Source: an uncultured Planctomycetia bacterium (lineage in GTDB: Bacteria > Omnitrophota > Gorgyraeia > 2-02-FULL-51-18). From it: a stretch of DNA of 64,000 nt. The stretch covers positions 4,965 through 68,964 of the forward strand of contig CAZVNB010000033.1 in the NCBI GenBank assembly GCA_964628355.1, written 5' to 3'. The number at the start of each line of letters is the position of its first letter. Position 1 is the first letter of the stretch. The notes under the pieces are model-generated. The model made no database searches. It saw only the letters and a list, made by a program, of their open reading frames with translations, and was not told where the DNA came from. Position numbers and translations under genes: made by a program. Shown here in pieces: positions 29,978 to 46,640 of the stretch.

Positions 29978-30636
29978 GAGATCTGCGTTTAAATCGCTTT
30001 TTCTCGAGACCGCTCACCCTACTTCTTCTCAAAACGCCGCTCACACCCAATCAAATCACTTTGATCAGCCTTGCTTTCGGAGTTGTAGCCGGAGTTCTCT
30101 TCTCCAAAGGAACCTACGGATTCTCGGTCGCGGGCGCCCTCAGTTATCAATTAGCCGTCGTGCTCGACAATTGTGACGGTGAAGTCGCCCGTGCCAAAAA
30201 CAAGCGTAGCGTGATCGGAGGATGGCTCGATGTCGGCGCAGACGTTTTGACTGATATTTGCCTTTTTCTTGGAATCGGCCTGGGGATGATAAAGCAAGGT
30301 ACAAATGGTCCGGTGCGACTTTTTATGATTCTCTGTGTGATCGGATCCCTCGCGCATTTTTTTCTTGTCGTGCTCGAAAAACTAAAAGGTTTCGGCCCAG
30401 CCGTATTTGAGGCGCCCCACCCCGAACATGAAGAAAGAAAAAGCATCCTCTTGAATATTTTTGACGCATTTCGCGAGGGCGATACCTCATGGTTTGTTGT
30501 TTTTTTCGCTGGAGTCGGCCAAACATCCGTTCTTCTATGGGCAGGCGGCATTTACATGCAACTTCTTTGGATCAGTGCCACTTTTGTCAATTTCCGCTGG
30601 CTTTTTCAAAGCACATGTATCAGGAGTCAAAAGTGA
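29974..30636 (+). CDS. CDP-alcohol phosphatidyltransferase family protein
   Basis: D-x2-DGxxAR...G...D...D motif (DNCDGEVARAKNKRSVIGGWLDVGADVLTD); multi-TM. Confidence 0.8.
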   Translation: MRDLRLNRFFSRPLTLLLLKTPLTPNQITLISLAFGVVAGVLFSKGTYGFSVAGALSYQLAVVLDNCDGEVARAKNKRSVIGGWLDVGADVLTDICLFLGIGLGMIKQGTNGPVRLFMILCVIGSLAHFFLVVLEKLKGFGPAVFEAPHPEHEERKSILLNIFDAFREGDTSWFVVFFAGVGQTSVLLWAGGIYMQLLWISATFVNFRWLFQSTCIRSQK

Positions 30637-31631
30637 GGCTGTTAAAGTTTTTTCTTATTGCACTTGGATTTTACATCCTATTCATAACCGTGAAAGTGGT
30701 TGGTATGGAAAAAATCTGGCAAAATCTTTCGGGACTACGTTGGAAACTGTTGCCGCTTGTTATATTTTATCCGATTATCTTTGCATTCGACACTCTTGGT
30801 TGGAACTATGCCTTTCCGCAAAAACTTCCGAAACAGGTGCCGTTTTTTCATCTTTATTTCATCCGCATCATCGGAGAAACATTGAATGCCGTGATCCCAT
30901 TTTCTGCTTCGCTGGGAGGCGAACCTATCAAAGCAGAGCTTTTGAAACGAAAACACGGCATTCCTCTCGCGGAAGGTTACGCCTCAATTCTAATCGTTCA
31001 CACAACGTTCTGGATATCGCTCAATTTGTTCGTGATTGGCGGCATTCTCGCGACGCTCAAAACCCTCCCACTCACGCCGATCCTTTGGAACAGCGTTTTA
31101 GTGTTTTTGGTCACGCTGGGGCTCGTGGCAGTGCTTCTTATCATTGGATTGCATTTGGGAATCTTCAAACATGTTTATGCGATCGGCGACAAATGGAAAT
31201 GGTGGGGAACAATGTCGCAGGACAAAAGTCAACGGTTTCTCAAACTCGACCACCAAATAAAAAAATTTTACACCACCCACCCGAAACAATTTTTCCTTTC
31301 AATTTTTTTCAATTTCCTAGGCTGGTTTGCGGGAAGTTTCGAGGTGTATTACATCGCAAAAATTCTCGGAATGAATATCGGCTTCGCGGAAGCCTGGCTT
31401 TTGGAAGCGCTGATCCAAGTTCTTCGTATTATCACATTTTTCATTCCGTCCAGCGTCGGCGCGCAGGAAGGTGGAATCGTCCTTATTTTCTCACAGTTTG
31501 GCTTTGGAAATCCGGTCAGCTTGGCCTTTGCGCTAATCCGGCGCTTGCGTGAGATTTTGTGGATAGGGTTGGGTTTGTTTCTGTGGTCGCTGGTTGAGGA
31601 TCGACCTAAAATTCAAGCTGAACGGGTTTGA
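30612..31631 (+). CDS. Lysylphosphatidylglycerol-synthase-like transmembrane (flippase-like) domain protein
   Basis: ~8 TM segments with the layout of the UPF0104 / MprF N-terminal domain. Start taken as ATG 30612 (MYQESKVRLLKFF) or GTG 30633. Confidence 0.55.
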   Translation, partial: HMYQESKVRLLKFFLIALGFYILFITVKVVGMEKIWQNLSGLRWKLLPLVIFYPIIFAFDTLGWNYAFPQKLPKQVPFFHLYFIRIIGETLNAVIPFSASLGGEPIKAELLKRKHGIPLAEGYASILIVHTTFWISLNLFVIGGILATLKTLPLTPILWNSVLVFLVTLGLVAVLLIIGLHLGIFKHVYAIGDKWKWWGTMSQDKSQRFLKLDHQIKKFYTTHPKQFFLSIFFNFLGWFAGSFEVYYIAKILGMNIGFAEAWLLEALIQVLRIITFFIPSSVGAQEGGIVLIFSQFGFGNPVSLAFALIRRLREILWIGLGLFLWSLVEDRPKIQAERV

Positions 31632-32506
31632 AGGTCCGCGATTTGCCCGTCTTTGCTTAGATTATCCTGAATCAGTAACTCGGCGCGGCCGCTGAGTTCT
31701 TTATTTTTATTTTCCAATTCCTTAATTCGATATTCCATCTCGTCAATTTTTTCACGGCCCGCATTGCGCCAGCCGATGTTTTGCTGCTTGAGCTCTTCAA
31801 TTTTATCTTCATAATCTTGTTTTAAGCTCGCTGCTTTTTTAAAAAGTTCATCGCGCTCCGCTTGCACTGCAGCCAATTCCATCCGCGAATCCTGCCCGTT
31901 CTTCTCGGCCTGTTTCCTGGATTCAACACGCATTTTACCGTAATAGGCCGATAGACTTCCATAGCCGGCACCAATCAAAATCACGGCCAAAAGCACGGGC
32001 CACCAAAAACTGAGTGTTTTGGGCGTGCGTTCCGTGCGAAGCTGTTGACTCAAATACGAATAAACATTTTTGATTTGTCCGTTAGTCTGTTCGTGGGCAT
32101 CTTGGATAAACTTACGATCCGCCGCGGGAGGGGATGAACGCTGGCTGAGAATTCCTTTGATCTCGGCAAGTTCACGGTTTACTTTTGCGAGATTTTCGTG
32201 ACTTGCCTTGAGCGCAGCGATTTTCTTAAGGAATTCGTCTCCCTCTGCCAGAAAAGCGCACACTTTATCCCATTCGGCAAAAGCGCGGGGCCATTCTTTT
32301 TTGATGTAATAGTTTCTGGCACGTGACAAACATTCTTCAATGATCTGCTCACGATTTTTTAAAGAATCGATTGGATTATTTTCCTGCTGCTGGGACTTTT
32401 GGGTCTCCGTCTCAAGTTCCCGTTGAATCAAAGAAAGGGTTCTCTCAAGCTCCGCCGCAGGCTGGAATTGAGGGACGTTTGACAGAGTCTCTTGTGTGTC
32501 GCTCAT
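31613..32506 (-). CDS. Coiled-coil membrane protein, hypothetical
   Basis: ORF with long heptad-rich segments and one TM segment (WWPVLLAVILIGAGYG). Confidence 0.4.
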   Translation of the reverse strand: MSDTQETLSNVPQFQPAAELERTLSLIQRELETETQKSQQQENNPIDSLKNREQIIEECLSRARNYYIKKEWPRAFAEWDKVCAFLAEGDEFLKKIAALKASHENLAKVNRELAEIKGILSQRSSPPAADRKFIQDAHEQTNGQIKNVYSYLSQQLRTERTPKTLSFWWPVLLAVILIGAGYGSLSAYYGKMRVESRKQAEKNGQDSRMELAAVQAERDELFKKAASLKQDYEDKIEELKQQNIGWRNAGREKIDEMEYRIKELENKNKELSGRAELLIQDNLSKDGQIADLQTRSA

Positions 32507-32586: not shown

Positions 32587-33897
32587 TTAAAACTTTCGGC
32601 GGTCAACCAGGCGTGAAAGTTTGCGGCCCTTCCGTAGGCTGCCTTTTTGAAAAATTTTGACGTCCAGTTTGCAAAGATCCATCTGGTATAAATTCCAGGC
32701 GTCTGGAAGATGTGATTGAAGGCCGGTAAAGATATTTTCTTTGATTTCTTGATCGCTTTTTCCGTTCGTCGATTCGACATGCAATTCAACAAGGTCTTTA
32801 TTTCCTTCTTTATCGACTACAATTTGCCAATCCTCCCCGAGTCCCGGTACGCTGCCCAATACCGGTTCGAACATCCAGGGAGCCAGATTGCCAAATCCCG
32901 TGGCCGTCCATTCATTCACGCGGCCTTTTAGTTTTTCAATGCGACGTCCCGGCAAACCGGCTTTAGACCTTCCTTCGATAAAACGCGTGATATCCCCGGA
33001 TTTATAACGAACCAGCGGCATCACACGGCGATTGAGCGTCGTGTAAACCAGCTCTCCATAACCCTCTTGGTTCCGATTCACTATTTCGAATAAATTGTGA
33101 AATTCATTCAAATGATAACCATCTTTCGCGCGCGACTCCATGCCGATCGCGCCAAACGCCTCCGTCTGTCCATAACTCAAAATAAAATCCGCTTTCCATA
33201 CCCCTTCGATATATCGGCGCGTCTGGTCCATCATATTTTCACCGCCGCCTATCATGAGTTTGATCGGCCAAGCGCCTTTTTTTTCGGCGATTTCCGTGAC
33301 GGCCAGCAACCACGAAGGATCTCCCACGATCACGCTGACACGATAATCCAAAAGACGGTCATAGAATTCCAAGGGGGAAATGCGTCCTGCTTCCACATGA
33401 AAACAATCAAGCACCTTGCAAGAAGCCGTAAGCACCGGTCCCGACACCCAAAAAGAGTAATCAAAAGAGCTGACCACACGGTCTTCAGGCCTCACGCCAA
33501 TACCCCATAAACCCACAGCACCGGCCCATCCCGCGTCCTCGATTTCATTCCTTGAAAAATAAACCCTTTTTGGTTTCTTGGAAGTCGTGCCCGTAGTCTC
33601 GTAGGCAGTGTCCGGACGCATACAAATAAATTCTTCCGGATTTTCCCGAATATCCTCGGCTGTCGTGAAAAAATCACCAAGATCCTCTGGTGATTTTACT
33701 TGGGCTACATCGATAGACCGCTCTTTAAATTTCCTCTTGTAAAACTTCGAATGCCGCGCAACAAACTGAATGGTTTTCCTGAAATTACTCTCTTCCATTT
33801 TTTTAAAAAGATTCGGCGGAAGTTTTGTGTAAAGATAAAAACCTTTTTCAGCGGAATTCCCGAATGGAATTTTATTGATGAGCGAAGCGATCGACAT
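32587..33897 (-). CDS. PaaK / coenzyme F390 synthetase-like adenylate-forming enzyme (aryl/acyl-CoA or acyl-ACP ligase)
   Basis: AMP-binding motif TTGTTSKKPKRVYFS; PaaK-family size (436 aa). Confidence 0.65.
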   Translation of the reverse strand: MSIASLINKIPFGNSAEKGFYLYTKLPPNLFKKMEESNFRKTIQFVARHSKFYKRKFKERSIDVAQVKSPEDLGDFFTTAEDIRENPEEFICMRPDTAYETTGTTSKKPKRVYFSRNEIEDAGWAGAVGLWGIGVRPEDRVVSSFDYSFWVSGPVLTASCKVLDCFHVEAGRISPLEFYDRLLDYRVSVIVGDPSWLLAVTEIAEKKGAWPIKLMIGGGENMMDQTRRYIEGVWKADFILSYGQTEAFGAIGMESRAKDGYHLNEFHNLFEIVNRNQEGYGELVYTTLNRRVMPLVRYKSGDITRFIEGRSKAGLPGRRIEKLKGRVNEWTATGFGNLAPWMFEPVLGSVPGLGEDWQIVVDKEGNKDLVELHVESTNGKSDQEIKENIFTGLQSHLPDAWNLYQMDLCKLDVKIFQKGSLRKGRKLSRLVDRRKF

Positions 33898-33900
33898 GCC

Positions 33901-35295
33901 TTAACGTCCTATCCTTTCTCTTGCGCATCTTTTAATTAATTGTTCGAACAAATCAGCGGCCAAATCCATTTCTGCTTCCGTAATGTCAAAACACGGCGCG
34001 ATCGTAAACACATTTTTGTAATAACCACCCACATCAAGCACTAGGCCGATTTTTTTTCCTTGAAAGTCTTTTAAATTACCTTTCATGCCCTCGGCGAATA
34101 TTTTATCCGCCAAGTTCCGATCAGGCGCATAGCCGTCCGCTTGCACGATTTCCATGCGCAGGGCAAGACCGATCCCGTCCACGTCCCCGATCACCTTGGG
34201 GTATTTTTTCTTCAACTTCTTAAGACGTGCCAGCAAAGATTTCCCTTTTTGCGTGACTGATTTTTCATAATCTTTTTCTTCCAACATTTTCATGAGCTCC
34301 AGGCCCACGGCTGTGCCGAGCGTGTTGGATGAAAACGTCGAATGAGTCGAGCCGGGAGGAAAAATTTTCGGCTGAATTAACTCTTCTTTCGCCCAGATTC
34401 CCGAAAGCGGATTTAGGCCATTCGTCAGCGCTTTGCCAAACACCACGATATCGGGCACAACATTGAAATTGGCCATCGACCATAATTTTCCGGCACGGTG
34501 AAAACCCATTTGAATTTCATCGTCCACCAAAAGAATTTTATGTCGATCAAGAATCTTCTTCAACATCGGAAAGTATTCTTTCGGCGGAATGACATACCCG
34601 CCGGTTCCCTGAATTGATTCGACGTAAAAAGCTCCGTACTCGGACTGGCCGGTTTTGGTGTCCAGCACGCCGTTGTACTCCGTCTCAAATAATTTCTCAA
34701 ACTGCTTCACACAGTACATTTTGCAATCAGGATATTTTTTATCATACGGACAGCGATAGCAATAAGGATATGGCACGAATTGAGCGCGATCCGAAAAGTG
34801 GCCGTAGCGACGACGGTAACGATAGCTTGACGTAATCGCCGAAGCACCCAACGTGCGGCCGTGATAACCACCCATAAATGCAAATACGAGGTTTTTGTGT
34901 GTATGATTTCGAACAAGTTTCAATGAATCCTCAACGGCCTGCGCACCGCCAACGTTGAAATGGACACGGCCTTTCTCCCCAAAAAGACGCTCCATGGACT
35001 TTGCGATTTTTTCGGCAAGCTCCACTTTTTCTTCATGTAGGTACTGGCAGGCCAACTGCGGCAGCTTGTCTATTTGTTTTTTGAGTGCCTGGCCAAGCCG
35101 CGGATTGGCATAACCAAAACTGGCCGCCGAATACCACATCTGTAAATCCAAAAATCGCATTCCCTGCCGGTCATAAAGATAACTTCCTTCACAGCGGTCA
35201 AAAAACTTCGGCGGTTCCAAATAATGCACGGTATCGCCGTATGAACAGTATTTACTCTCTTTTTCTAAAAGTTTTTTTTCATGAGCATCCATCGA
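33901..35295 (-). CDS. Class III (omega) aminotransferase
   Basis: PLP fold-type I AT-III; LVDDEIQMGFHRAGKLWS (DEIQ motif) and FGKALTNG (Lys in the GKAL context). Likely start MDAHEKKLL. Confidence 0.75.
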   Translation of the reverse strand, partial: SMDAHEKKLLEKESKYCSYGDTVHYLEPPKFFDRCEGSYLYDRQGMRFLDLQMWYSAASFGYANPRLGQALKKQIDKLPQLACQYLHEEKVELAEKIAKSMERLFGEKGRVHFNVGGAQAVEDSLKLVRNHTHKNLVFAFMGGYHGRTLGASAITSSYRYRRRYGHFSDRAQFVPYPYCYRCPYDKKYPDCKMYCVKQFEKLFETEYNGVLDTKTGQSEYGAFYVESIQGTGGYVIPPKEYFPMLKKILDRHKILLVDDEIQMGFHRAGKLWSMANFNVVPDIVVFGKALTNGLNPLSGIWAKEELIQPKIFPPGSTHSTFSSNTLGTAVGLELMKMLEEKDYEKSVTQKGKSLLARLKKLKKKYPKVIGDVDGIGLALRMEIVQADGYAPDRNLADKIFAEGMKGNLKDFQGKKIGLVLDVGGYYKNVFTIAPCFDITEAEMDLAADLFEQLIKRCARERIGR

Positions 35296-35324
35296 AAGAC
35301 CTTTCTTGAAAAGAAAAATTCCAT

Positions 35325-36017
35325 TTAAGAACGAACAAAACGTGTTTTTTTTAGCAGAGGGTGATTTTCCGCTAACCATTCCTCCACTTTTTTGAAATCC
35401 TTATAAGCTATGTGATCAATCGCATTTTCGCGGCAATGGTCCAACAACTTTCCCTTCGCAAACGTTAGGTGGGCCTGCTCAGCGGCATAACGGTCGGAGA
35501 ATCCGTCTCCGACAAAAAAAATGTGGTCATCCACAGACGTGATTTTTTTTATGAGAAGCGCCTTGCAATTAGCGCAGCCATGCACACAAGGCGCTTCGGT
35601 GCCAAAAATCACCTCAAAACCCGATTTAGTTTTTTGAAGTTTGTTGGAATAGATTGGAAGTCCCTTTAATAAACCGGGTTTTTCCTGCAAGTTGTTTTTC
35701 AACACCTGCTCAATGAAAACATCAAAACCGTCACTGACAATAGTGACAAGCACTCCGAGCTCCTCAGCTTTTTTAAGAAACGACACAAAATACGGATCCA
35801 ATTTGACTTTCGAAACCGTAGACCATAGCTCCTGGGGTGTGGCTTGGACTAATTTGATTTGACGCGATAAGCACTCACGCGAACCGATCCGACCAGCCAG
35901 CCATTCTTTTTCAACATCCTTCCAGGCTTTGTCGGCGAAACGTTCGAGCACCAAGTCTACGACGTCGTCCGCCGCGATGGTGCCGTCAAAATCCAAAAAA
36001 AAGTGTATGGTTTTCAA
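35325..36017 (-). CDS. HAD-superfamily phosphatase (subfamily IB / MtnX-like)
   Basis: Motif I FLDFDGTI, a downstream SDGF, and GDGFSD. Confidence 0.7.
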   Translation of the reverse strand: MKTIHFFLDFDGTIAADDVVDLVLERFADKAWKDVEKEWLAGRIGSRECLSRQIKLVQATPQELWSTVSKVKLDPYFVSFLKKAEELGVLVTIVSDGFDVFIEQVLKNNLQEKPGLLKGLPIYSNKLQKTKSGFEVIFGTEAPCVHGCANCKALLIKKITSVDDHIFFVGDGFSDRYAAEQAHLTFAKGKLLDHCRENAIDHIAYKDFKKVEEWLAENHPLLKKTRFVRS

Positions 36018-37294
36018 ACCTGTCTCACAATCAGAGTAATATTCTGGCCACCAAACCCAAACGAATTGCTTAAAATTGTTTTCACTTTCTGCCGGCGTGC
36101 CACGTTCGGCACGTAATCCAAGTCGCAGGAGTCATCGGGTGTTTCATAATTAATCGTGGCAGGAATCACACCCTGGCGAATCGTCAAAACACTTGCGATA
36201 AGTTCAACCGCGCCTGCCGCCGCAATCATATGCCCCAACATGGACTTGATCGAACTCATTGGAATTTTTTTAGCATTGATGCCAAAAACTTTTTTCACCG
36301 AATGAGTTTCAATTTGGTCGTTTAATTGCGTGGAAGTGCCATGAGCATTGATATAATCAATGTCCTTTGAACTCAACCGGGCGTCGCAAAGCGCCGCACA
36401 CATGGCCTGTATCGCGCCGCGGCCTTCCGGGTGCGGATCCGTGAGACGATAGGCGTCGGCACTGCCACCGTAACCGGCGAGTTCTGCCAAAATAGTCGCT
36501 TTTCTTTTTTGGGCATGTTCGAGACTTTCCAAAATCAAAACCCCGGCGCCCTCTGATAAAACAAACCCATCCCGATTTTTATCAAAGGGTCTTGAGGCTT
36601 TTTGTGGCGCATCATTTCGAGTGGAAAGTGCGGTCAGTAAATTGAAACCCGCCAGCCCCAGAGGGTGAATCATGGAATGAGCGCCGCCCGTGATCATCAC
36701 GTCCGCATCTCCGCGACGGATAATCTCAGCCGCCTCGCCAATGGCTTGGCTGGAGGCCGCACAAGCAGTCAAGCAATTCGAAACAACCCCTTGCGCATTG
36801 AACGCTTGCGACAAATGATTGACGACTTGAAATGGTTCCTGTTCCAAAAGTTTCTGCGGATTGATGCGCAACAAACTGTTGGACAAATACCGCGACGGAC
36901 TAACCGACTCGTTTTCCTCGAGCGAATCCACCAAAATAGACGCATATTCTTCGAAATCAAATCCCCCATCGCCGGCCCCGAAATACACGCCTACGCGAGC
37001 CGGATCCAAGCGATGATTTTCAAGACCAGCCTGGTGGAGAGCTTCGCCAGCTGCTTCCAGGGCAAATAAACTATTGCGTCCGAGTTTTGTTTCTGTTTTT
37101 TGCCAACGGGAAAAATTAGCTTTTTTTACTTCGCCGGCAATTTTTGTAGGAAAACTTTCAGCATTAAAAAGGGTGATGCGCCCAATGCCGGATTTTCCTT
37201 CACAAAGTGCCTTCCAAGTATCGCGCACATTATTGCCCAAGGGCGTCAGCGCTCCCATTCCTGTAATGACCGCGCGGTTAGACATATTTTTCAT
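36014..37294 (-). CDS. Beta-ketoacyl-ACP synthase II-type ketosynthase, catalytically competent
   Basis: Active-site Cys in CLTACAASS, then HGTSTQLND and GHMIAAAG (Cys-His-His triad). Confidence 0.85.
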   Translation of the reverse strand: MKNMSNRAVITGMGALTPLGNNVRDTWKALCEGKSGIGRITLFNAESFPTKIAGEVKKANFSRWQKTETKLGRNSLFALEAAGEALHQAGLENHRLDPARVGVYFGAGDGGFDFEEYASILVDSLEENESVSPSRYLSNSLLRINPQKLLEQEPFQVVNHLSQAFNAQGVVSNCLTACAASSQAIGEAAEIIRRGDADVMITGGAHSMIHPLGLAGFNLLTALSTRNDAPQKASRPFDKNRDGFVLSEGAGVLILESLEHAQKRKATILAELAGYGGSADAYRLTDPHPEGRGAIQAMCAALCDARLSSKDIDYINAHGTSTQLNDQIETHSVKKVFGINAKKIPMSSIKSMLGHMIAAAGAVELIASVLTIRQGVIPATINYETPDDSCDLDYVPNVARRQKVKTILSNSFGFGGQNITLIVRQV

Positions 37295-37295
37295 T

Positions 37296-38543
37296 TTATT
37301 TTCCTGAATAAATTTTAGTAATAATGGAAACGGCCTGGCCGTTAAAACCAAAAGCATTTGTCATCGCATATGACATCTGTTTTTTAAGCGCATTTCCAGA
37401 AACTATTTGAAAGCCCCAGTCACGCTCTGATTTCGAAAAATTTGCAACCGCCGGAATCATTTGATGCTGCAGTGCAAGTGTCGACACAATCAAATCCAGC
37501 GATCCCGCCGAAAAGCCGGTAAAACCGGTAATGGGTTTGGATGCGCTGACAAATAAATTTTTACCGGTGCCATTAAAAACCTCGGAAATCGCCTGCGCCT
37601 CACGTCGATCCTCGTCTTTTAAACCGAGACCCGTTGCCTGTAAATAATGAACATCCGAAGCCTTAAGACCGGCCTCTTTTATCGCCGCTTCCATTGCTTT
37701 TTTTCTTCCACAGTTCGATGCAGAACCAAATCCCATCACTTCCGCGTAAATTTTCGCGCCTCTTTTTTTGGCATGCTCCAGCTCTTCCAAAAGCAAAAAA
37801 CCGGCACCCTCGCCCACCACAAACCCATTTGCTGCGGCATCAAATGGACGAAAATTTGCGCTACCCGTGTGATTGAGAGCTCCCAGCAGCTGATACTGCG
37901 ACATCCCGACGGGATTCACTTTGGATTCGGCTCCGCCGGCCAACATGAGATCCGCACCTCCTCGCTCGATAATGCGAAAAGCTTCTCCCACCGCCTGCAA
38001 TCCCGCCGAAGCTCCCGTCGTAATGGTGTTGTTCATCCCCTGCAAATCAAACAAAATAGAAATATGACAAGCAGACATGTTTGGCAAATATTTGAGCAGC
38101 CACAGAGGAAATAACGTTGAAAGTCCGCTGTCTCCGAACCGCGCCAGATTCATTTTTCCTGAATCATCCAGCGAATTTTGAACGCTGTAGGCCAACTCAT
38201 CCAACTCGTGATTTAAAACACCCGATCCTACGATCACGCCAAAACGTTCATGATTAAAAGACCAGGTCTCTACGTTGGAATCATCGATCGCAAGGCGCGC
38301 GCCGGCCACAGCCAATTGAATATCGCGCGCCATGACCTTGAGAGCTTTCTTCTGTGTCACGTATTTTTCAGGGGAAAAGTCGCGAATCACGGCCGCCAAA
38401 ACTTTGCGTTCGTACGATCCGCCAAATTCATCCAAAAAACTTATCCCGGAGCGACCTTCGATTGCCGCGGCCCAAAGAGCGTCAGTTCCTTCTCCAACAG
38501 CCGTGATCGCTCCCAATCCCGTAATAACCACGCTTTTTTTCAA
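37296..38543 (-). CDS. KAS-like protein lacking the catalytic triad (chain-length-factor-like partner)
   Basis: Thiolase fold, but ITTGASAG replaces TACSS (Cys to Ala), LQATGLG replaces HGT (His to Gln), and the second His is absent (ITGFTG). Confidence 0.8.
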   Translation of the reverse strand: MKKSVVITGLGAITAVGEGTDALWAAAIEGRSGISFLDEFGGSYERKVLAAVIRDFSPEKYVTQKKALKVMARDIQLAVAGARLAIDDSNVETWSFNHERFGVIVGSGVLNHELDELAYSVQNSLDDSGKMNLARFGDSGLSTLFPLWLLKYLPNMSACHISILFDLQGMNNTITTGASAGLQAVGEAFRIIERGGADLMLAGGAESKVNPVGMSQYQLLGALNHTGSANFRPFDAAANGFVVGEGAGFLLLEELEHAKKRGAKIYAEVMGFGSASNCGRKKAMEAAIKEAGLKASDVHYLQATGLGLKDEDRREAQAISEVFNGTGKNLFVSASKPITGFTGFSAGSLDLIVSTLALQHQMIPAVANFSKSERDWGFQIVSGNALKKQMSYAMTNAFGFNGQAVSIITKIYSGK

Positions 38544-39022
38544 ATGACGATTCCTTCACTTTTTTTTGCGATTTTATAAACGTCATAGTGGTTTAAAAAA
38601 TGATCGTTAAAAACCACTGTTTTGTCCGATGAACCCGTTAAGGGGTCCATCGTGACCAAAAGCATTCTCGCCGTCGCGATACATTCGCTCCCCTGCTTTA
38701 CCTCACCGGAAATCCAAGCGCCTTCTTCACGCTCATTTTCGATGCGCGCCACAATCGTCAATTGACAAGGCGGTAGCACTGTTTTTTCGAAGCGCGCCAT
38801 CTCTATTTTTGCCAAAATAACCTCTTTTTTGAAATCAGTTCCCAAACCAAATAAAACGCCGCCAGCCTGCGCGATCATTTCAATAAAGAGTGGTTCCGGC
38901 ACACGCGGATGTCCCGGTTCATGTTCAGCAAAAAAATCCTCATTCCCATCAAAAGCTTTGATGGCTCTTGAAAAATCACCTTTCTTGAGCACCTCGAAAC
39001 GATCGACTAAATCCCAGCGCAT
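38540..39022 (-). CDS. Hotdog-fold 3-hydroxyacyl-ACP dehydratase (FabA/FabZ-like)
   Basis: HEPGHPRVPEPLFIEMIAQAG resembles the FabZ His-containing motif; 160 aa. Confidence 0.6.
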   Translation of the reverse strand: MRWDLVDRFEVLKKGDFSRAIKAFDGNEDFFAEHEPGHPRVPEPLFIEMIAQAGGVLFGLGTDFKKEVILAKIEMARFEKTVLPPCQLTIVARIENEREEGAWISGEVKQGSECIATARMLLVTMDPLTGSSDKTVVFNDHFLNHYDVYKIAKKSEGIVI

Positions 39023-39399
39023 GGGGCCTGCTCACGGGGATAGCAATAGGCAATGACATAAAAACGGCTTTTGGCGAACAAAATTTCAAGCGGGTTTTTT
39101 CTGGAAATCTTTTTGTGAAATATTCCTTTTAGGCGAAGAGAAAATCGGTTTTTTCCGGGTAAAATTTCAATGCACTTAAATCCCGAAACGCCCATCCAAG
39201 AAACGCCAAGCGCTTTAAACACGGCCTCTTTCGCAGACAAAATCATCGCAAGTGCTTGATAAGGTTTGTTGGAGGTTTCTACGTACGTGACTTCGGCAGA
39301 ACATAAAAAACTACCGAGTTTTTCGCGATGTGCTTTATAAAACGTCTTGGCTTTCTTCCATTCAAACATATCCACCCCAAGGGGCCAGGCGGCATTCAT
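39007..39399 (-). CDS. Holo-ACP synthase / 4'-phosphopantetheinyl transferase (AcpS-like)
   Basis: ~125 aa; SAKEAVFKALG matches the AcpS motif. Confidence 0.55.
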   Translation of the reverse strand: MNAAWPLGVDMFEWKKAKTFYKAHREKLGSFLCSAEVTYVETSNKPYQALAMILSAKEAVFKALGVSWMGVSGFKCIEILPGKNRFSLRLKGIFHKKISRKNPLEILFAKSRFYVIAYCYPREQAPCAGI

Positions 39400-39406
39400 T
39401 GGAAAA

Positions 39407-39802
39407 CTACTTGTGGGCGATTTGGAGCTTTCCCGAGAGATAATCCACGATCATACCGACCGTGAAAAGATTGCCCAGGTTGGACACTTGCGGATGTTTC
39501 GTGAATTCGTCCCAATTGACATTGGACATTTTTGGTTTCAATTCTTCGATGCCAGCCGGCGTGACAAGACCATTTTTTACGAAACGCGCATCGGTGAGAA
39601 TTTTTTCCGGAAAAAGTTCTCCTTTAGGTATTTTGATTTTGAACGCTTTTTCCAAGCGAAATACGATATCAAGAAAGTCGATGGATTCCGCGCCCAGGTC
39701 CTTAATCAATGAAGAATTTAAAGCTATTTTTCCTTCATCGACTTTTAGCGCTTGTGAAATTATGCTCTTGACGTTTTTAACAATGTTATCTTTTTCATGC
39801 AT
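39407..39802 (-). CDS. Acyl carrier protein with a C-terminal extension
   Basis: DLGAESIDFLDIVFRLEKAF (phosphopantetheine Ser in a DSL-like context); 131 aa. Confidence 0.65.
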   Translation of the reverse strand: MHEKDNIVKNVKSIISQALKVDEGKIALNSSLIKDLGAESIDFLDIVFRLEKAFKIKIPKGELFPEKILTDARFVKNGLVTPAGIEELKPKMSNVNWDEFTKHPQVSNLGNLFTVGMIVDYLSGKLQIAHK

Positions 39803-39833
39803 ATCCGTTTCTTAAGACTCCTTCTTTAATTCT

Positions 39834-40292
39834 TTAATTCCGCGCCGCAACCAGTGAAAAACTGGCCGTGAGCACCCGGCCAATGGGATTTCCACTATCG
39901 CCCATCAAATCCATGCGACCTTCCAAAAATGCCCGAGGTCCTTCTTTCTTCATCAATCGCGCGAAAATCCGCAACAAATTACCTGGTTTTACAAATTGAC
40001 CGAACTTTACCTCATGCACCTGTTCCAACCTCAGGAGCTGCGTGTCCGAGTTTTCCCAACCACCCAGAAGAAGCATGGCTGCTTGTTTGAGCGATTCCAA
40101 GAGTAAAACCCCTGGCATCACCGGAAAATTTTCGAAATGATCTTGCAGGAATTCTTCATTTCCTTTCAACGTGAAAAAAGCCGTAATACTCTGGTTCTTT
40201 TCTACTTCCGAAATTTTATCAATAAAAGAGAATGCACCCAAATGTTTTTTTATCCCTGAAAAAAGAGCAATTTTAACTCCGTAATATAGCAT
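39834..40292 (-). CDS. FabZ-like 3-hydroxyacyl-ACP dehydratase
   Basis: HFENFPVMPGVLLLESLKQ is the classic FabZ active-site motif. Confidence 0.75.
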   Translation of the reverse strand: MLYYGVKIALFSGIKKHLGAFSFIDKISEVEKNQSITAFFTLKGNEEFLQDHFENFPVMPGVLLLESLKQAAMLLLGGWENSDTQLLRLEQVHEVKFGQFVKPGNLLRIFARLMKKEGPRAFLEGRMDLMGDSGNPIGRVLTASFSLVAARN

Positions 40293-40328
40293 GAAAGTGG
40301 AGAAAATACCAAGCAGTTAGTCCGAAGG

Positions 40329-41619
40329 GGTGACGTCAATCAAATTGGGTAAATTGCTTTAAGGGTTTGTTCTTCCAGTTGTTGTTTAAGTGCGTAAAGA
40401 TGGCGTAAATGATGCGTTCACTTGAGGCGATATTCGAGAAGCAGGAGAACACTCTCGTTCTACGCCTAACCTCTCGGAAGGCCCGTTCAATGGCGTTGGT
40501 TGTCCGGATTTTGATCTGGTGCGACTTCGGACAGTCCAGGAAGGCGAGCATCTCTTCCAGGTCCTTTTCAAGACAATGAACCGCTTGGGGCGCCCTCTTC
40601 TGCCAGTCCCTCTTCCAGGCCTTGAACTCGGCGACGGCCTTGAGTCGGTTTGGTGCTTGGTAGATTCCTCGCGCCTGGTCAATCAACTCTTCTTCGTAGG
40701 CCTTCTTGCAGTAATTGGAGACATTCCTGAGCTTGTGAGCCCAACAGCGTTGGATCTTGGAGTGAGGATAGACGAGTTCAGCGGCTGTTTTTAAACCGGC
40801 TGATCCGTCCATGGCGATGAGTTTTAGGTTCTCCCCTTTAAGGCCTCTCCGATAAAGAGAATTCAAAAGAGACTCCCATGAAGCTTGGGACTCCCCCTTG
40901 GCGGTCATGAACCCGATGAGTTTCCTTTCTCCAAAGACTGTGATGCCGTAAGCTACAAGGATCTTTCGGTTGTGATACCTGCCGTTGTAGAGGGTTTTCA
41001 AGGTAATGCCGTCCAGGATGAGATATTGGTATTCATCAAGAATGGGCGCTCTGTGGAATTGTGCGACTTTTTTATCCAGTCTCTTTGTGATATTGGAGAC
41101 CGTGCCGTGGGAGACTTTTGTGTCTAGGAGCTTAGAGATGGCCTCTCCCACACGGCGGGTTGAGACTCCGGCGAGGAAGATGCCTTCTATCGGGTCTAGC
41201 ACCAGATCCTGATGGCGGTGGTATCTTTTAAAGACTCTTGTTTTAAATTCAGCTCCACGGGCTCTTGGGACCTGAATGTCTTCGACTAGACCAAACTGGG
41301 TCACAAGACCACGGGAGTAATAGCCATGCCGGTAGACGGAGGCCTTGCGGTCGTAAGGAGCGCGTTTTAGTTCCTGGGTCATCTCTTCGGCCATGGTTGA
41401 TTCCATCAGTTCCTTCAAGAGTGTTTTTACCTTTTCTTTGGCATTTTCCTGCCAGAAGTTTTCTTTGACCTCTACCCACCAATCTTTTAGAATCTGGGAT
41501 TGTGGGAGTGTTCTTCCGTGTGCTTCCATGGGCGTATTCCTCCTTTGTGTGATAACTAGAAGGATACGCCCTTTTCTTTTCCTACCTACTTGAATTTACC
41601 CAATTTATTTTACGCTACC
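40329..41619 (-). mobile_element. IS256-family (Mutator-type) insertion sequence, ~1291 bp
   Basis: A single transposase ORF flanked by imperfect ~27-bp terminal inverted repeats sharing the core AAATTGGGTAAATT (40342-40355 and 41594-41607 as the reverse complement). No clean target-site duplication detected. Confidence 0.8.
40336..41529 (-). CDS. IS256-family transposase (Transposase_mut)
   Basis: 397 aa; DDE region with conserved LILDGITLK ... MDGSAGL ... CWAHKLRN ... AIERAFREVRRR blocks. Confidence 0.9.
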   Translation of the reverse strand: MEAHGRTLPQSQILKDWWVEVKENFWQENAKEKVKTLLKELMESTMAEEMTQELKRAPYDRKASVYRHGYYSRGLVTQFGLVEDIQVPRARGAEFKTRVFKRYHRHQDLVLDPIEGIFLAGVSTRRVGEAISKLLDTKVSHGTVSNITKRLDKKVAQFHRAPILDEYQYLILDGITLKTLYNGRYHNRKILVAYGITVFGERKLIGFMTAKGESQASWESLLNSLYRRGLKGENLKLIAMDGSAGLKTAAELVYPHSKIQRCWAHKLRNVSNYCKKAYEEELIDQARGIYQAPNRLKAVAEFKAWKRDWQKRAPQAVHCLEKDLEEMLAFLDCPKSHQIKIRTTNAIERAFREVRRRTRVFSCFSNIASSERIIYAIFTHLNNNWKNKPLKQFTQFD

Positions 41620-42140
41620 TTTTCTGTAGAATTATCGAAGAACATCCAGCTGTCAACTTTATCTTTATAGATAAGTTGAAAATTATCGAGCGATCTTTGG
41701 AATCTCCTTCTCACGTCTTTTTCCGGAACGTTATGGCCTCCTTTTGAGACTCTCTGCTTTATTCGAGCCAGAGAAAGATGGGCATCAGGCACCCATAGAA
41801 AAAATAAAAAAATCTGATACCCCTCAGCCCTAAGCTGCGAAAATAATCGAGCGTTGGTTTTACCTGAAAGAGTGGTTTCAAACCCAAAATCCTTTAAGTG
41901 CGTAGCATATTCACGTATTCTCTTCAGAACTGTCCGACACGCCTGCATCGCTTCTCCTTCTGGGGAAAAGGGAGACAGCCCTTGGGCAACAAAATCTGCA
42001 TTAATAAAATTCGGGCAATGCACATAACTATGCAAAAACTCTTTAGCAAAAGTAGTTTTGCCCGAGCCGTTCGGGCCAGCGATGATGTAGAGGTTTTTAG
42101 GGTTCAAGTATTGCGTCCAACCTGTTCGATACTTTCCCAT
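41610..42140 (-). CDS. Zeta-toxin / COG4185-like P-loop kinase; the 3' end lies inside the IS terminal repeat
   Basis: Walker A IIAGPNGSGKTT with INADFVAQ downstream. The last codons (..VA-stop) are encoded by IS right-end sequence (41610-41619). Confidence 0.6.
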   Translation of the reverse strand: MGKYRTGWTQYLNPKNLYIIAGPNGSGKTTFAKEFLHSYVHCPNFINADFVAQGLSPFSPEGEAMQACRTVLKRIREYATHLKDFGFETTLSGKTNARLFSQLRAEGYQIFLFFLWVPDAHLSLARIKQRVSKGGHNVPEKDVRRRFQRSLDNFQLIYKDKVDSWMFFDNSTEKVA

Positions 42141-42500
42141 ACAATAGCGTAGGCCGCGTTCCATAATCGACTGAAATTATCATATTCATCCTTATTCGAA
42201 GGTAGCCCTATTTGTGTAAATGATGATTTGAGGATCTCTCCCTTGTAACTGACTTCTATCGATATCATGGACGCATCCAGGCCCACATAATCAAGTTTCC
42301 CCGTCTTTTGAAGCTCAGTCAGTTTTGCATAAACATCCGAGACAATTCTCTGGCCTTCACCAAACGGTTTTATTGACACTTCCGTAACTTTCCCTGTACG
42401 AATGCGGCCCGGATAATAACTTACTTTAACATAATCCTCACCAGCCCAGACTGACCTGCAAACTAATAAAAAAATGACGACTAAAAAACATTTCTTCATG
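42104..42500 (-). CDS. Secreted hypothetical protein
   Basis: Start ATG 42500 with GGAGA RBS. Signal peptide MKKCFLVVIFLLVCRSVWA. The listed 5' extension is leader sequence. Confidence 0.5.
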
Positions 42501-42514
42501 TTTTTCTCCTGGAA

Positions 42515-42710: not shown

Positions 42711-42748
42711 TAGTATCTTTGGGGTGAAAATCCAATAAAAAGCGAGCT

Positions 42749-43189: not shown

Positions 43190-43442
43190 CCGACGCTAAC
43201 TCTTGAGACGCCAAAATCAAATGATCGCCAACCGATGCCCAGTCGCTGTAAAGAGCTTGATTATCAGCTTCCTGCGGGGTCAAATTTTCATTATAAACAT
43301 CCTGGTTGCCGAGGATATCCAAAACCCTAGACATCCCTTCGGTCAGCGAAGGATTGGCAAACAAACGGCCCGATCTAAAAAACAGTGTGCTATTCATAGT
43401 TATATTATGCCATATGAAAACGAAGGCTGACTAATTAAAAGA

Positions 43443-46636: not shown

Positions 46637-46640
46637 TCGA

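Follow-up and report, generated by a model that had tools for sequence, protein, structure and literature searches.

What does a compact run of lipid-type genes in an Omnitrophota MAG build: a pigment, ordinary fatty acids or something else? The original prediction for the 64,000-nucleotide stretch analysed here (the window) took nine co-directional, tightly packed genes for an uncharacterised lipid or polyene cluster of type II PKS/FAS-like kind, with an active ketosynthase (KS), a dead CLF-like partner, a dedicated acyl carrier protein (ACP) and phosphopantetheinyl transferase (PPTase), and two hotdog dehydratases. That outline proved sound. These nine genes form the middle of a larger lipid-building cluster that is conserved and uncharacterised. 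Our best reading is a dedicated FAS-like system joined to an amine-installing tailoring module, which together would make an envelope amino(glyco)lipid.

A nine-gene block of two modules

All nine ORFs were found on the minus strand, one of them with a shifted start, and Pfam and NCBIfam matches support the assignments:

39834-40292, minus strand: DH1, FabZ-like hotdog dehydratase (Pfam FabA, 2.3e-14)
39407-39802, minus strand: dedicated ACP, 131 aa (PP-binding, 1.3e-9)
39007-39399, minus strand: AcpS-type PPTase (Pfam ACPS, 2.4e-10)
38540-39022, minus strand: DH2, second FabZ-like dehydratase (FabA/FabZ-like)
37296-38543, minus strand: KSdead, catalytically dead FabF paralogue (ketoacyl-synt N and C; FabF alignment; family scan)
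36014-37294, minus strand: active FabF-like KS, presumed heterodimer partner (ketoacyl-synt N and C; TIGR03150)
35325-36017, minus strand: HAD-IB (MtnX/PHOSPHO-like) phosphatase (TIGR01489, 95 bits, cutoff 81.55)
33901-35292, minus strand: class III PLP aminotransferase, 463 aa (Aminotran_3, 7.5e-73)
32587-33897, minus strand: PaaK-type adenylate-forming ligase (PaaK-like)

Gaps between the genes of this block (32587-40292) range from -16 to +31 nt. Since the gene order is the same in 11 related Omnitrophota loci, the block lies far beyond chance, and no characterised cluster matched it at high identity. It splits into two separable modules: M1, with DH1, ACP, AcpS, DH2, KSdead and KS, and M2, with the phosphatase, the aminotransferase and the ligase, in this order. 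The M1 core recurs in Omnitrophota and throughout Planctomycetota: at least 588 stretches of their species genomes matched it. The cluster is flanked by housekeeping genes (glmS, rsmI, ppc, the pyr operon, dxs and ispA).

Both dehydratases carry their catalytic residues (His52 and Glu66 in DH1, His34 and Glu48 in DH2). The tunnel residue at His+21 is the canonical Gly in DH2 and Met in DH1; this Met is not conserved, the rest of the DH1 family having S, A or G. In the DH2 family the His is replaced in about one third of the members. The ACP, with its attachment Ser within LGAESID, had been called extended. Its extra length is real, but it is no C-terminal tail: about 45 residues are inserted internally, between IKIPKGELFP and helix IV. 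The insertion is present throughout the M1 loci compared and conserved in 22 Omnitrophota and Planctomycetota loci, with ACP lengths of 127-133 aa. In an AlphaFold model (pLDDT 84), solved ACPs match the four-helix core only (TM about 0.5 on model length, about 0.8 on that of the target). The AcpS gene overlaps the DH2 gene by 16 nt; it was recognised in nine of the 11 Omnitrophota-type loci, and also in the lineage of loci L013, L014 and L016.

The ketosynthase and its inactive partner

Alignment with FabF (4r8e, 3hnz) shows that all three catalytic residues of KSdead are replaced, as predicted: Cys163 by Ala, His303 by Thr and His340 by Phe, with Lys335 retained. The expected Cys-to-Ala change is thus present, but the predicted His-to-Gln changes are not. 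The FabF loop DAYHMTSP is missing through an 11-residue deletion, and the family has motifs of its own (LLKYLPNM and K[VL]MARDIQ). Among the 60 matches listed, FabF (E 3e-66) ranks above the actinorhodin KS, Iga11 and the anammox chains, and no CLF chain occurs. Judged by these matches KSdead is a FabF-derived PVC paralogue; the dead partner was correctly recognised, but a kinship to CLFs is not supported.

The KS retains Cys/His/His in alignment with B. subtilis FabF, as had been proposed. It is nearly an equivalog of FabF (490.7 bits against TIGR03150, cutoff 493.75) and passed the KAS II subfamily model. Its start codon is confirmed by the gene call in locus L001 and by an AGGAAA ribosome-binding site. 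In a neighbour-joining tree KSdead and KS form separate sister clades, which diverge in parallel (correlation of pairwise distances r = 0.90, reached by 0 of 2,000 permutations). KSdead evolves faster than KS, and its former catalytic positions vary by lineage (A/T/F, S/N/H, E/H/N, D/H/S), which fits a structural, non-catalytic subunit. The Glu/His/Asn pattern is also that of R. baltica NP_866153, listed as one of five fabB/F paralogues (Rattray 2009). Planctomycetes carry the KS/KSdead pair besides canonical FabF paralogues.

Of characterised systems, the amxFabF2/amxFabFmut heterodimer of anammox bacteria and the cispentacin Amc system come closest to this cluster. Anammox FabF2 and FabFmut pair as a KS/CLF-like heterodimer with malonyl-ACP decarboxylating activity (bioRxiv 10.64898/2026.05.19.726425), and their genes have the same order as here, with the dead copy upstream. 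'Ladderane' clusters called by antiSMASH have been reported in Omnitrophota, so automated calls would suggest ladderane biosynthesis for this locus too. The order of ACP, FabZ-like, dead FabF and FabF genes mirrors anammox Cluster I, and the best solved relatives of DH1 are the anammox amxFabZ structures 7qv0 and 8ayb (E 4e-12). However, no B12-radical SAM or phytoene-desaturase-like gene was found in the window, KS and KSdead are nearer to canonical FabF than to chains B and C of 9s5h, and ladderanes are known from anammox bacteria only. We regard the chance of a ladderane product as negligible.

Genes around the block and a mobile island

The cluster continues upstream of DH1, beyond an insertion, and a further operon converges on the ligase gene:

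40293-47735, minus strand: mobile island of 7.4 kb that splits the cluster
40324-41624: IS256-family element within the island, with 32-nt inverted repeats; a zeta-toxin-like kinase, a DUF2335 protein and hypotheticals make up other island content
47736-48524, minus strand: membrane-anchored hexapeptide-repeat (LbH) acyltransferase (Pfam Hexapep)
48928-49677, plus strand: FabL-like SDR, divergently transcribed (NF005975 FabL, 279 bits, cutoff 328)
49655-50836, plus strand: membrane GT2 glycosyltransferase (HpnB/CruG-like)
50796-51644, minus strand: secreted DUF1571 protein (PF07608, 5.6e-27; signal-peptide-like N-terminus)
51641-52567, minus strand: membrane-anchored alpha/beta-hydrolase
28026-31631, plus strand: conserved convergent operon with UppP, a class V aminotransferase (PhnW/AepZ-like), a CDP-alcohol phosphatidyltransferase and an HpnL/LPG_synthase_TM flippase-like protein

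Within the island a repeat of 100-190 nt, which carries a terminator-like hairpin, occurs three times. L004, L007, L008, L009 and L012 lack the island and have the acyltransferase gene immediately before DH1; the insertion has therefore displaced part of the cluster here. This accounts for the reported lack of a local ketoreductase or thioesterase, which is true within 32587-40292 but not beyond, as the FabL-like SDR and the alpha/beta-hydrolase lie 8-12 kb upstream. The IS256-bearing island between the first operon gene and DH1 may also alter expression.

The acyltransferase has two N-terminal hydrophobic segments and matches the Pls/PosA C-terminal domain best among NCBIfam models (96 bits); in relatives it is the first operon gene, adjoins DH1 and is 60-81% identical. 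By its family score the SDR is a probable enoyl-ACP reductase; it is syntenic in L004, L007, L008 and L009 (70-73% identity). The GT2 gene is syntenic in relatives and also occurs in the L013/L014/L016 lineage. The DUF1571 gene is syntenic in L007 and L009 and lies near the core in several Planctomycetota; a faint TP_0789/LolA-like match of its homologue in locus L084 makes a LolA-like lipid carrier possible. The hydrolase, a candidate thioesterase or O-acyltransferase, has counterparts of 57-59% identity in L007 and L009, and an alpha/beta-hydrolase gene follows KS in 13 of the 45 Planctomycetota-type loci. A FabG-like gene (279 bits against TIGR01830) stands between DH1 and ACP in L004, L005, L009 and L012. 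The convergent operon adjoins the ligase gene in L003, L005, L007, L008, L009, L011 and L012 and may belong to the same pathway.

The locus had been likened to aryl-polyene (APE), xanthomonadin and flexirubin clusters, in which the ligase would activate an aryl acid and KS/CLF with two dehydratases would build a conjugated polyene. Several parts invite this comparison: a KS with an inactive partner, two hotdog dehydratases, a dedicated ACP, a PaaK-type ligase, the GT2 and the possible LolA-like protein. But the ligase reaches 104.7 of the 520 bits required for FlxY and the relatives' FabG 231 of the 340 for FlxB, the KS is FabF-like rather than PKS-like, and the FabL-like enoyl reductase belongs to the conserved cluster. 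There is a single ACP, and neither an initiating KS nor a methyltransferase, an aryl-acid-forming enzyme or an MMPL exporter was identified among the window ORFs scanned. The aminotransferase and the phosphatase are foreign to the described gene sets, as had been noted. An aryl-polyene identity is not supported by the NCBIfam scores, the missing genes and the reductase, and a pigment of this type is very improbable.

The proposed tailoring trio and its possible product

The aminotransferase gene had been placed at 33901-35295; the gene stands, but its start moves to the ATG at 35292, in agreement with the gene call in L001 (35295 falls on TCG). It encodes the most conserved protein of the cluster (79-87% identity within Omnitrophota), with catalytic Lys and Asp present and archaeal class III enzymes as best solved relatives (E 8e-59). 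The HAD gene overlaps the KS gene by 4 nt. For the ligase the best family is the DVU_1553-type (156 bits, cutoff 300), followed by PaaK models (109-116 bits); the PaaK structure 4r1l matches with E 7e-34. The synteny that the original prediction left to be checked holds in Omnitrophota: phosphatase and aminotransferase follow KS in all 10 Omnitrophota-type loci that extend far enough, and the ligase is present in all 8 whose contig reaches its position.

Each module also occurs without the other. In the loci examined from Phycisphaerae, Pirellulales and Planctomycetaceae, M1 has no M2 and is followed by seryl-tRNA synthetase, so M1 does not need M2. M2 recurs in Acidobacteriota-type operons (aminotransferase 74%, phosphatase 38-43%, ligase 45-47% identical), again with the phosphatase beside the aminotransferase and the ligase homologue as the next gene. 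Other genes of these operons encode UgtP-like diglucosyl-DAG synthases, a NodB-type deacetylase, an ABC exporter and a radical SAM enzyme; no ACP and no KS were found in them. M1 and M2 may thus be only loosely coupled here, and the substrate of the trio may be a head-group or a backbone unit instead of a polyene chain. In locus L087 deacetylase and phosphatase are fused, and in L084 the M2 operon lies beside DUF1571 and a KS pair.

Could the block be the main FAS II set of a small-genome organism, with a SerB-like phosphatase and an ArgD-like aminotransferase merely co-transcribed? The near-FabF score of the KS, its KAS II match, the FabG- and FabL-like genes and the housekeeping flanks would agree with this. 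So would the reported gene content of complete Omnitrophota genomes, which mostly lack canonical serC and serB (serB in 5 of 176) and all have 'argD' (176 of 176); together with the high conservation of the aminotransferase, these counts leave room for a role of this enzyme or the phosphatase in primary metabolism. However, a dedicated PPTase, an ACP with a family-specific insertion and a dead KS are not features of a primary FAS, and planctomycetes have canonical FabF paralogues in addition to the pair. The order of phosphatase, aminotransferase and ligase is conserved across phyla inside lipid operons, and scores against ArgD (205, cutoff 410) and SerB (35, cutoff 144) are low. Genes for FabD, FabH and acetyl-CoA carboxylase were not found in the window. 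We consider a housekeeping role of the block unlikely.

We instead favour, with roughly an even chance of being right, an envelope-lipid cluster of about 24 kb whose two evolutionarily separable modules have the following roles. M1 would be a dedicated type II FAS-like elongation system, its ACP activated by the cluster's own AcpS-type PPTase. The KS would pair with the adjacent KSdead, which would do no chemistry of its own and shape the acyl tunnel and chain length; the pair may prime itself by malonyl-ACP decarboxylation, like amxFabF2/amxFabFmut. The two FabZ-like dehydratases would process the chain. If FabG (inside the operon in relatives) and the nearby FabL-like reductase complete the cycle, a defined, largely saturated or 3-hydroxy/enoyl fatty acyl chain is expected, not a polyene.

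M2 would be a portable, nitrogen-introducing trio. The aminotransferase may convert a keto- or aldehyde-phosphate into a small amino-(alcohol) phosphate, the ligase may adenylate a carboxylate (the M1 fatty acid) and join it to that amine as an amide, and the phosphatase would free a hydroxyl, giving a diacylglycerol- or ceramide-like acceptor. Surrounding membrane enzymes (LbH acyltransferase, alpha/beta-hydrolase, GT2, CDP-alcohol transferase, flippase-like protein and secreted DUF1571 carrier) would add acyl, sugar or phosphate groups to this acceptor and export it. An amino-functionalised lipid, as originally suggested, is a plausible product.

Alternatively, the ligase could attach a starter acid to the ACP, and the aminotransferase could, by analogy, aminate an ACP-bound ketone as AmcC does, a class III transaminase with precisely this activity (PMC10698177). 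Taken further, this is the logic of cispentacin: a keto-acid starter loaded as by AmcH, one or a few elongations by KS/KSdead, processing by a hotdog protein, amination and release by a hydrolase would yield a small amino acid or beta-amino acyl product made on the carrier protein. The same families are assembled here (ACP, KS with inactive partner, hotdog proteins, adenylate-forming enzyme, class III transaminase), an enoyl reductase and a hydrolase are nearby, and AmcB, AmcE and AmcF give weak NCBIfam matches. These matches are far under the cutoffs, however (AmcF 221 and 140 versus 325, AmcE 20-23 versus 140, AmcB 28 versus 80), and weaker than those to generic FabF, FabZ and ACP models. 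The neighbouring genes encode membrane-lipid-type enzymes, the trio stands beside glycolipid synthases without ACP or KS in Acidobacteriota, and in most Planctomycetota the M1 core lacks aminotransferase and ligase. A cispentacin-like product is possible, if on the improbable side.

In some Planctomycetota the M1 core is followed by an alpha/beta-hydrolase and a GH3 adenylating enzyme, paralogues of the ornithine-lipid enzymes OlsI/OlsH (PMC12493201). By this sequence relationship, the set appears to be a parallel amide-forming solution.

Gene content and the ketosynthase pair

The block at 32587–40292 consists of nine minus-strand ORFs, as originally predicted, and the labels given to them match Pfam and NCBIfam:

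39834–40292, minus strand: DH1, a FabA/FabZ-like hotdog dehydratase (Pfam, NCBIfam)
39407–39802, minus strand: PP-binding acyl carrier protein (ACP), 131 aa (Pfam, NCBIfam)
39007–39399, minus strand: AcpS-type PPTase (Pfam, NCBIfam)
38540–39022, minus strand: DH2, a FabA/FabZ-like hotdog dehydratase (Pfam, NCBIfam)
37296–38543, minus strand: KSdead, a ketoacyl-synthase protein (Pfam, NCBIfam)
36014–37294, minus strand: KS, a ketoacyl-synthase protein (Pfam, NCBIfam)
35325–36017, minus strand: HAD-IB phosphatase, MtnX-like (Pfam, NCBIfam)
ATG at 35292, minus strand: class III aminotransferase, 463 aa (Pfam, NCBIfam)
32587–33897, minus strand: PaaK-like adenylating ligase (Pfam, NCBIfam)

Neighbouring genes are spaced by −16 to +31 nt. 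The aminotransferase had been predicted to start at 35295, where the codon is TCG; the true start is the ATG at 35292, as in the 463-aa gene call on a public contig identical to the window. Both dehydratases retain the catalytic His and Glu. The tunnel residue of DH1 is a bulky Met, but its relatives carry S/A/G, which rules out a bulky tunnel residue of the type seen in the anammox dehydratase amxFabZ as a hallmark of the DH1 family.

The KSdead and KS genes adjoin with a gap of 1 nt. KS has an intact Cys-His-His triad, scores slightly under the cutoff of the FabF model TIGR03150 (490.7 versus 493.75) and passes the subfamily model NF005589 (483.5, above 387). KSdead scores 307.5 against TIGR03150 and the triad is absent: alignment to FabF structures revealed Cys163 to Ala, His303 to Thr and His340 to Phe, with Lys335 retained. 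The prediction of a dead partner resembling a chain length factor (CLF) was therefore right about the loss of the triad but not about the His-to-Gln replacement, the actual residues being Thr and Phe. In KSdead, 11 residues of the 'DAYHMTSP' loop known from FabF are missing as well.

An active KS beside an inactive homologue is likewise found in actinobacterial type II PKSs such as those for actinorhodin and ishigamide (Iga11/Iga12). Actinorhodin-type CLFs carry a decarboxylating Gln where the dead subunit of the window has Ala. Among solved structures, KSdead matched FabF (3e-66), the anammox chains 9s5h_B (2e-52) and 9s5h_C (1e-37), the actinorhodin KS (5.6e-44) and Iga11 (4.9e-38); no CLF chain was among the 60 matches listed. 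By sequence, the dead subunit is a putative FabF derivative, independent of actinorhodin-type CLFs.

More than 120 database proteins are homologues of KSdead (56–100% identical), the named ones stemming from Candidatus Omnitrophica/Omnitrophota MAGs. Across 27 family members, the Cys position is occupied by Ala, Pro or Val and the first His position by Ser, Ala, Cys or Thr; the second is Phe in all, and the Lys is invariant. Between lineages the former catalytic positions vary further, from Ala/Thr/Phe in the window to Ser/Asn/His in the related locus L013, Glu/His/Asn in Singulisphaera and Asp/His/Ser in Phycisphaerae; the Glu/His/Asn pattern has also been given for R. baltica NP_866153 (Rattray et al. 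2009). In a neighbour-joining tree, the partner KSs formed one clade and the dead KSs its sister clade, with mirrored internal branching. Pairwise distances of KS and KSdead were correlated (r = 0.90; 0 of 2,000 permutations as high), a sign that the two genes are inherited together rather than that their products interact. Evolution is faster in the dead copies, with a mean distance of 0.52 versus 0.40 for KS. The KSdead family has invariant residues in 'LLKYLPNMxACHIS', a motif that corresponds to the tunnel-lining helix-loop-helix segment mutated in the anammox protein amxFabFmut. The faster evolution of the dead copies, the drift at their former catalytic positions, the mirrored trees and this conserved motif fit a non-catalytic, structural role of KSdead. 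Gene adjacency, parallel divergence and the tunnel-lining motif lend indirect support to a putative KS/CLF-type heterodimer.

Stand-alone KS genes with an intact Cys-His-His triad, basal to the dead-KS clade, occur in three Gemmataceae loci (L020, L023 and L049), and in L047 (7401–8675) a 'dead' copy still has its Cys (Cys/Cys/Lys/His). They may represent steps on the way to an inactive enzyme.

The ACP had been described as extended. Its extra length is real (131 aa) and is due to an internal insertion of about 45 residues between 'IKIPKGELFP' and helix IV, not to a tail. All 22 ACPs examined from Omnitrophota and Planctomycetota share the insertion (127–133 aa), and more than 7,900 database proteins match at E ≤1e-10, the best 120 listed being 130–141 aa long and nearly all of them 130–137 aa. 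The AlphaFold model (pLDDT 84) places a small subdomain, made of short helices and a hairpin, between helices II/III and IV; solved ACPs superpose on the four-helix core only, and the insertion is without counterpart in them. The insertion and the cluster's own PPTase together suggest that this ACP is dedicated to the cluster and is not the housekeeping AcpP.

The cluster extends beyond the block. In the related loci L004, L007, L008, L009 and L012, a hexapeptide-repeat acyltransferase gene lies immediately before DH1, preceded by a divergent pair encoding a FabL-like SDR and a GT2; in L007 and L009, DUF1571, alpha/beta-hydrolase and TatC genes follow beyond this pair. The window counterparts are located at 47736–52567, parted from DH1 by a 7.4 kb insertion (40293–47735), an island that the relatives lack. 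Hydrophobic segments are present at the N-termini of the acyltransferase, GT2 and alpha/beta-hydrolase. The N-terminus of the DUF1571 protein resembles a signal peptide, which together with a faint Pfam match raises the idea that the protein is LolA-like; its single-sequence AlphaFold model had a pLDDT of 38, too low for interpretation. The best model for the window SDR, which is syntenic in the cluster of relatives, is the enoyl-ACP reductase FabL (279 versus 328 bits). Four relatives additionally have a FabG-like gene between DH1 and ACP (279 versus 297.75 for FabG; 231 against 340 for the flexirubin model FlxB), absent in the window. The original prediction that no ketoreductase or thioesterase is encoded locally holds inside 32587–40292 but not for the wider cluster, given the FabL-like SDR and the alpha/beta-hydrolase on the far side of the island. 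This gene content favours a FAS-like cycle with reductive steps over a polyene pathway.

Distribution of the core and comparison with known systems

Scanning one genome per species with the motifs LLKYLPNM and K[VL]MARDIQ yielded at least 599 stretches, at least 588 of which were confirmed as KSdead relatives. Among the matches listed, the best 11 loci are Omnitrophota-type (56–68% identity), and the others (34–43% identity) represent every major lineage of Planctomycetota, among them the complete genomes of Kolteria novifilia, Singulisphaera sp. Ch08 and strain ZRK34. These numbers suggest that the dead-FabF design is widespread in the PVC superphylum, with its own carrier-protein type and variable tailoring modules. 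Since planctomycetes with genetic tools carry the core, tractable relatives are available for study.

Loci were fetched with 10 kb flanks and searched by tblastn with the window proteins as queries. The core DH1-[FabG]-ACP-[PPTase]-DH2-KSdead-KS is kept across Omnitrophota and Planctomycetota, and what follows KS differs. In Isosphaeraceae, Kolteria and some other Planctomycetota-type loci, genes for an alpha/beta-hydrolase (13 of 45 loci) and an adenylating enzyme of the GH3 family (9 of 45) are found there, sometimes accompanied by DUF1571. In the Phycisphaerae, Pirellulales and Planctomycetaceae loci examined, seryl-tRNA synthetase directly follows KS and the core stands alone, so that GH3 and alpha/beta-hydrolase can be discarded as universal followers of the planctomycetal core. 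A distinct lineage (L013, 7753–19160; L014; L016; dead KS 42% identical) has a stand-alone thioester reductase, a GT2 and an MMPL exporter after KS, a methyltransferase before the core and also a saccharopine-dehydrogenase-like protein, which suggests a fatty aldehyde, alcohol or amine as product. These lineage-specific differences after KS point to the core as an old, portable unit with lineage-specific tailoring.

One of the nearest known designs is anammox Cluster I (amxACP, amxFabZ, amxFabFmut and amxFabF2; Kuenenia KustE3603-3606; structures 9s5h/9s5i and 7qv0), which, like the window, belongs to the PVC superphylum. In both, a dedicated ACP and a FabZ variant accompany a dead FabF whose gene lies immediately before that of an active one, and the context resembles FAS more than PKS; the window order is ACP, (PPTase), DH2, KSdead and KS, with the triad lost. 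For amxFabF2/amxFabFmut the heterodimer is proven, the pair decarboxylates malonyl-ACP, and the dead subunit, called the first chain length factor in a fatty-acid pathway, tunes chain preference (bioRxiv 10.64898/2026.05.19.726425). Within FAS-like systems, this pair alone provides an experimental precedent, and our findings indicate that a CLF-like subunit in fatty-acid synthesis may be common and not an anammox oddity. The best solved relatives of DH1 are amxFabZ structures, by a narrow margin (4e-12 versus 6e-11). In Rattray et al. (2009), two R. baltica FabF paralogues without the active-site Cys cluster with Kuste3606, and one of them has the same Glu/His/Asn pattern as the related locus L057.

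There are also differences. The anammox triad replacements are Val or Thr plus Asn/Glu/Cys, against Ala/Thr/Phe in the window, and anammox Cluster I lacks the second dehydratase, the PPTase and the HAD-aminotransferase-ligase trio. KS and KSdead are nearer to canonical FabF than to 9s5h_B and 9s5h_C; since their sequences lie no nearer to the anammox chains than to ordinary FabF, we take them as the same design and as only possibly orthologous. Neither the B12-dependent radical SAM nor the phytoene-desaturase-like genes, hallmarks of anammox Cluster I, were found in the 64-kb window. With these genes absent from the window, a ladderane assignment fails, although the core architecture is common to both. 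Automated tools already label Omnitrophota clusters 'ladderane', without functional meaning, and genome-mining surveys that use this label gain a module definition and motifs.

The original prediction had also compared the block with aryl-polyene, flexirubin and xanthomonadin loci. These share with the window a KS with CLF-like partner, two dehydratases, a dedicated ACP, a PaaK-type ligase, a GT2 and an outer-membrane-carrier-like protein. The comparison nevertheless failed: the ligase reached 104.7 bits against 520 for FlxY (NF053551), its best model being the DVU_1553-type ligase, also below cutoff; an enoyl reductase is present; and the ORFs scanned in the window include one ACP only and no third or initiating KS, methyltransferase, aryl-starter gene or MMPL exporter. 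MMPL genes are confined to the separate L013/L014 lineage.

In planctomycetes, ornithine lipid is made by OlsH, a GH3-family N-acyl-ornithine synthetase, and OlsI, an O-acyltransferase of the alpha/beta-hydrolase type (PMC12493201). Genes for alpha/beta-hydrolase and GH3, the enzyme types of this route, come after the DH-ACP-DH-KSdead-KS core in Isosphaeraceae and Kolteria, which suggests by analogy that the planctomycetal core may feed an ATP-dependent, amide-forming aminolipid route. The Omnitrophota cluster likewise combines an alpha/beta-hydrolase with an adenylating enzyme, with a PaaK-type ligase in place of GH3; no GH3 gene was found in the 64-kb window. The core-adjacent GH3 proteins are paralogues and not OlsH itself (Kolteria 144 and Singulisphaera 82 bits versus a cutoff of 620), and the published description of the OlsH/OlsG/OlsI operon mentions no FAS genes.

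As originally predicted, no characterised cluster matches the block, and it is not discussed among the Omnitrophota genome papers we found. It is a FAS/PKS-like lipid cluster with a KS/CLF-type pair, in which two conserved elements are uncharacterised: the insertion-bearing ACP and the trio.

The trio and a possible amide-linked lipid

HAD phosphatase and aminotransferase follow KS in all ten Omnitrophota-type loci that reach that far, and the ligase is present in all eight that extend to it (identity to the window 45–68%, 79–87% and 62–69%, respectively). No protein of the cluster is better conserved than the aminotransferase, which has homologues 72–75% identical in Acidobacteriota MAGs. Its catalytic Lys and Asp are retained, archaeal class III enzymes (E 8e-59) are its nearest relatives of solved structure, and it scores below every equivalog cutoff. 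For the ligase, the best-matching families are DVU_1553-type and PaaK, with scores under the cutoffs of both; our literature search found no papers on DVU_1553 or DUF1571.

In the fetched Acidobacteriota-type loci, the HAD-IB phosphatase precedes the aminotransferase wherever upstream sequence is present. A ligase homologue (45–47% identical in three loci compared directly) or, in the other loci, an AMP-binding-type gene of matching size follows it. The trio lies within an operon that appears uncharacterised:

Operon order: radical SAM, ABC ATPase, ABC permease, one or two UgtP-like diglucosyl-diacylglycerol synthases, NodB/PgdA-type deacetylase, HAD, aminotransferase, ligase
L085, 3294–12804 (also L082/L083, L086 and L087): radical SAM PTO1314/MoaA-like, ABC exporter, two UgtP-like synthases

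Deacetylase and HAD are fused into one protein in L087 (8450–9913). None of the fetched Acidobacteriota-type trio loci contains an ACP. The occurrence of the trio in glycolipid operons lacking an ACP points to a portable module of membrane-glycolipid operons that would not depend on the core. Conserved from Omnitrophota to Acidobacteriota inside such operons, the trio counts as another uncharacterised unit; its elucidation could uncover a novel membrane lipid that contains nitrogen, in two phyla that are abundant and poorly cultured, and could bear on the envelope biology of the ultra-small Omnitrophota.

In L084, DUF1571 and a KS pair precede the trio operon, which by gene order links a KS pair to the trio outside Omnitrophota. 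This locus (475–12104) also encodes radical SAM, an ABC transporter, a fused double MGDG-synthase-like transferase, deacetylase, HAD, aminotransferase and a truncated ligase, and has no ACP; the first member of its KS pair has kept the Cys and shows His303 to Pro and Lys to Arg.

Capsule glucuronamides of Campylobacter jejuni follow a logic of transaminase, ATP-dependent amidoligase and HAD phosphatase. Modelled on this logic and on the planctomycetal GH3/alpha/beta-hydrolase arrangement, our preferred order for the trio is transaminase, ligase, phosphatase. The core would build a defined acyl chain on its own ACP. The transaminase would make an amino-(alcohol) phosphate, the ligase would join this amine to a carboxylate, most simply the fatty acid from the core, as an amide, and the phosphatase would then expose a hydroxyl. 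Such a product would resemble diacylglycerol and would serve as acceptor for the glycosyl- and phospho-transferases found with the trio in all its contexts. The full proposal, to which we give a rather low probability, is that Planctomycetota and Omnitrophota share a second, hitherto unrecognised fatty-acid synthase, with an obligate FabF/dead-FabF heterodimer and an insertion-bearing ACP, which here feeds the cross-phylum trio; the trio would yield an amide-linked, non-glycerol-ester backbone (serinol- or aminoglycerol-type, ceramide-like) that is then glycosylated or phosphorylated and exported. If true, this would be a new bacterial membrane-lipid class and would also account for the 'ladderane-like' clusters of non-anammox bacteria.

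The main rival takes its logic from cispentacin/coronafacic acid (AmcB-AmcH), where the adenylating enzyme loads the ACP, with 2-oxoglutarate, and the class III transaminase aminates the ACP-bound ketone (PMC10698177). The set of enzyme families is strikingly similar: ACP, KS with inactive partner, hotdog protein, adenylate-forming enzyme and class III aminotransferase, with enoyl reductase and hydrolase recruited in both. However, the Amc models score far under their cutoffs with the window proteins (AmcB 28/80; AmcE 20.5 and 23.4/140; AmcF 221 and 140/325), and the Amc system makes a soluble cyclic beta-amino acid with no HAD phosphatase or membrane-lipid enzymes (PMC10698177). In contrast, the aminotransferase and ligase of the window travel with a phosphatase and are found in other phyla without an ACP.

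Flanking genes and the IS256 island

Around the cluster and in the island that divides it, we found the following features:

28026–31631, plus strand: operon for UppP, class V aminotransferase, CDP-alcohol phosphatidyltransferase and HpnL/LPG_synthase_TM flippase-like protein; convergent with the cluster and kept beside it in relatives
31613–32506, minus strand: ORF of 297 aa after the ligase, no Pfam/NCBIfam match; overlaps the end of the flippase-like gene by 19 nt
53378–54355, plus strand: membrane-anchored protein, 325 aa, no family match; 39% identical beside tatC in L007 and L009, outer edge of the cluster
10687–20403, minus strand: complete pyrimidine operon (pyrR-like, pyrB, pyrC, carA, carB, pyrK, pyrD, pyrF), downstream
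54313–57114: dxs and polyprenyl synthase
24812–25225, minus strand: small gene of the phage-associated family TIGR01671, between ppc and rsmI in housekeeping surroundings
40324–41624: IS256-family element with 32-nt inverted repeats; transposase at 40336–41529
41610–42164: zeta-toxin-like kinase, in the island
42749–43189: DUF2335 protein, in the island
42527–42720, 44735–44916 and 46543–46645: three copies of an intergenic island repeat, 100–190 nt, 74–97% identical

The class V aminotransferase scores slightly under the PhnW/AepZ cutoff (342 versus 360.8 bits), and the 64-kb window holds no PEP mutase or other phosphonate genes that would account for it. Most complete Omnitrophota genomes reportedly lack serC and serB, so that this aminotransferase and the HAD phosphatase might be non-canonical serine-pathway enzymes. 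A housekeeping role of the cluster itself keeps a low probability: its dedicated ACP and PPTase, the dead KS and the conservation of the trio across phyla all speak against it, and complete Omnitrophota genomes reportedly have argD in 176 of 176 cases and serB in 5 of 176. The CDP-alcohol phosphatidyltransferase is weakly PIP-synthase-like.

The 297-aa ORF was rejected as a cluster member, having no family and being absent from all relatives save the identical contig. The pyrimidine operon, dxs and polyprenyl synthase nearby place the cluster in a chromosomal, housekeeping setting. Scans of the 64-kb window for tRNAs and Rfam families gave no matches, and promoter predictions were no more frequent than expected from shuffled sequence. 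The island has a lower GC content (42–44%) and includes several further ORFs without family match. Its repeat copies lie about 2.2 and 1.8 kb apart, each with a strong terminator-like hairpin, and its organisation looks cassette-like.
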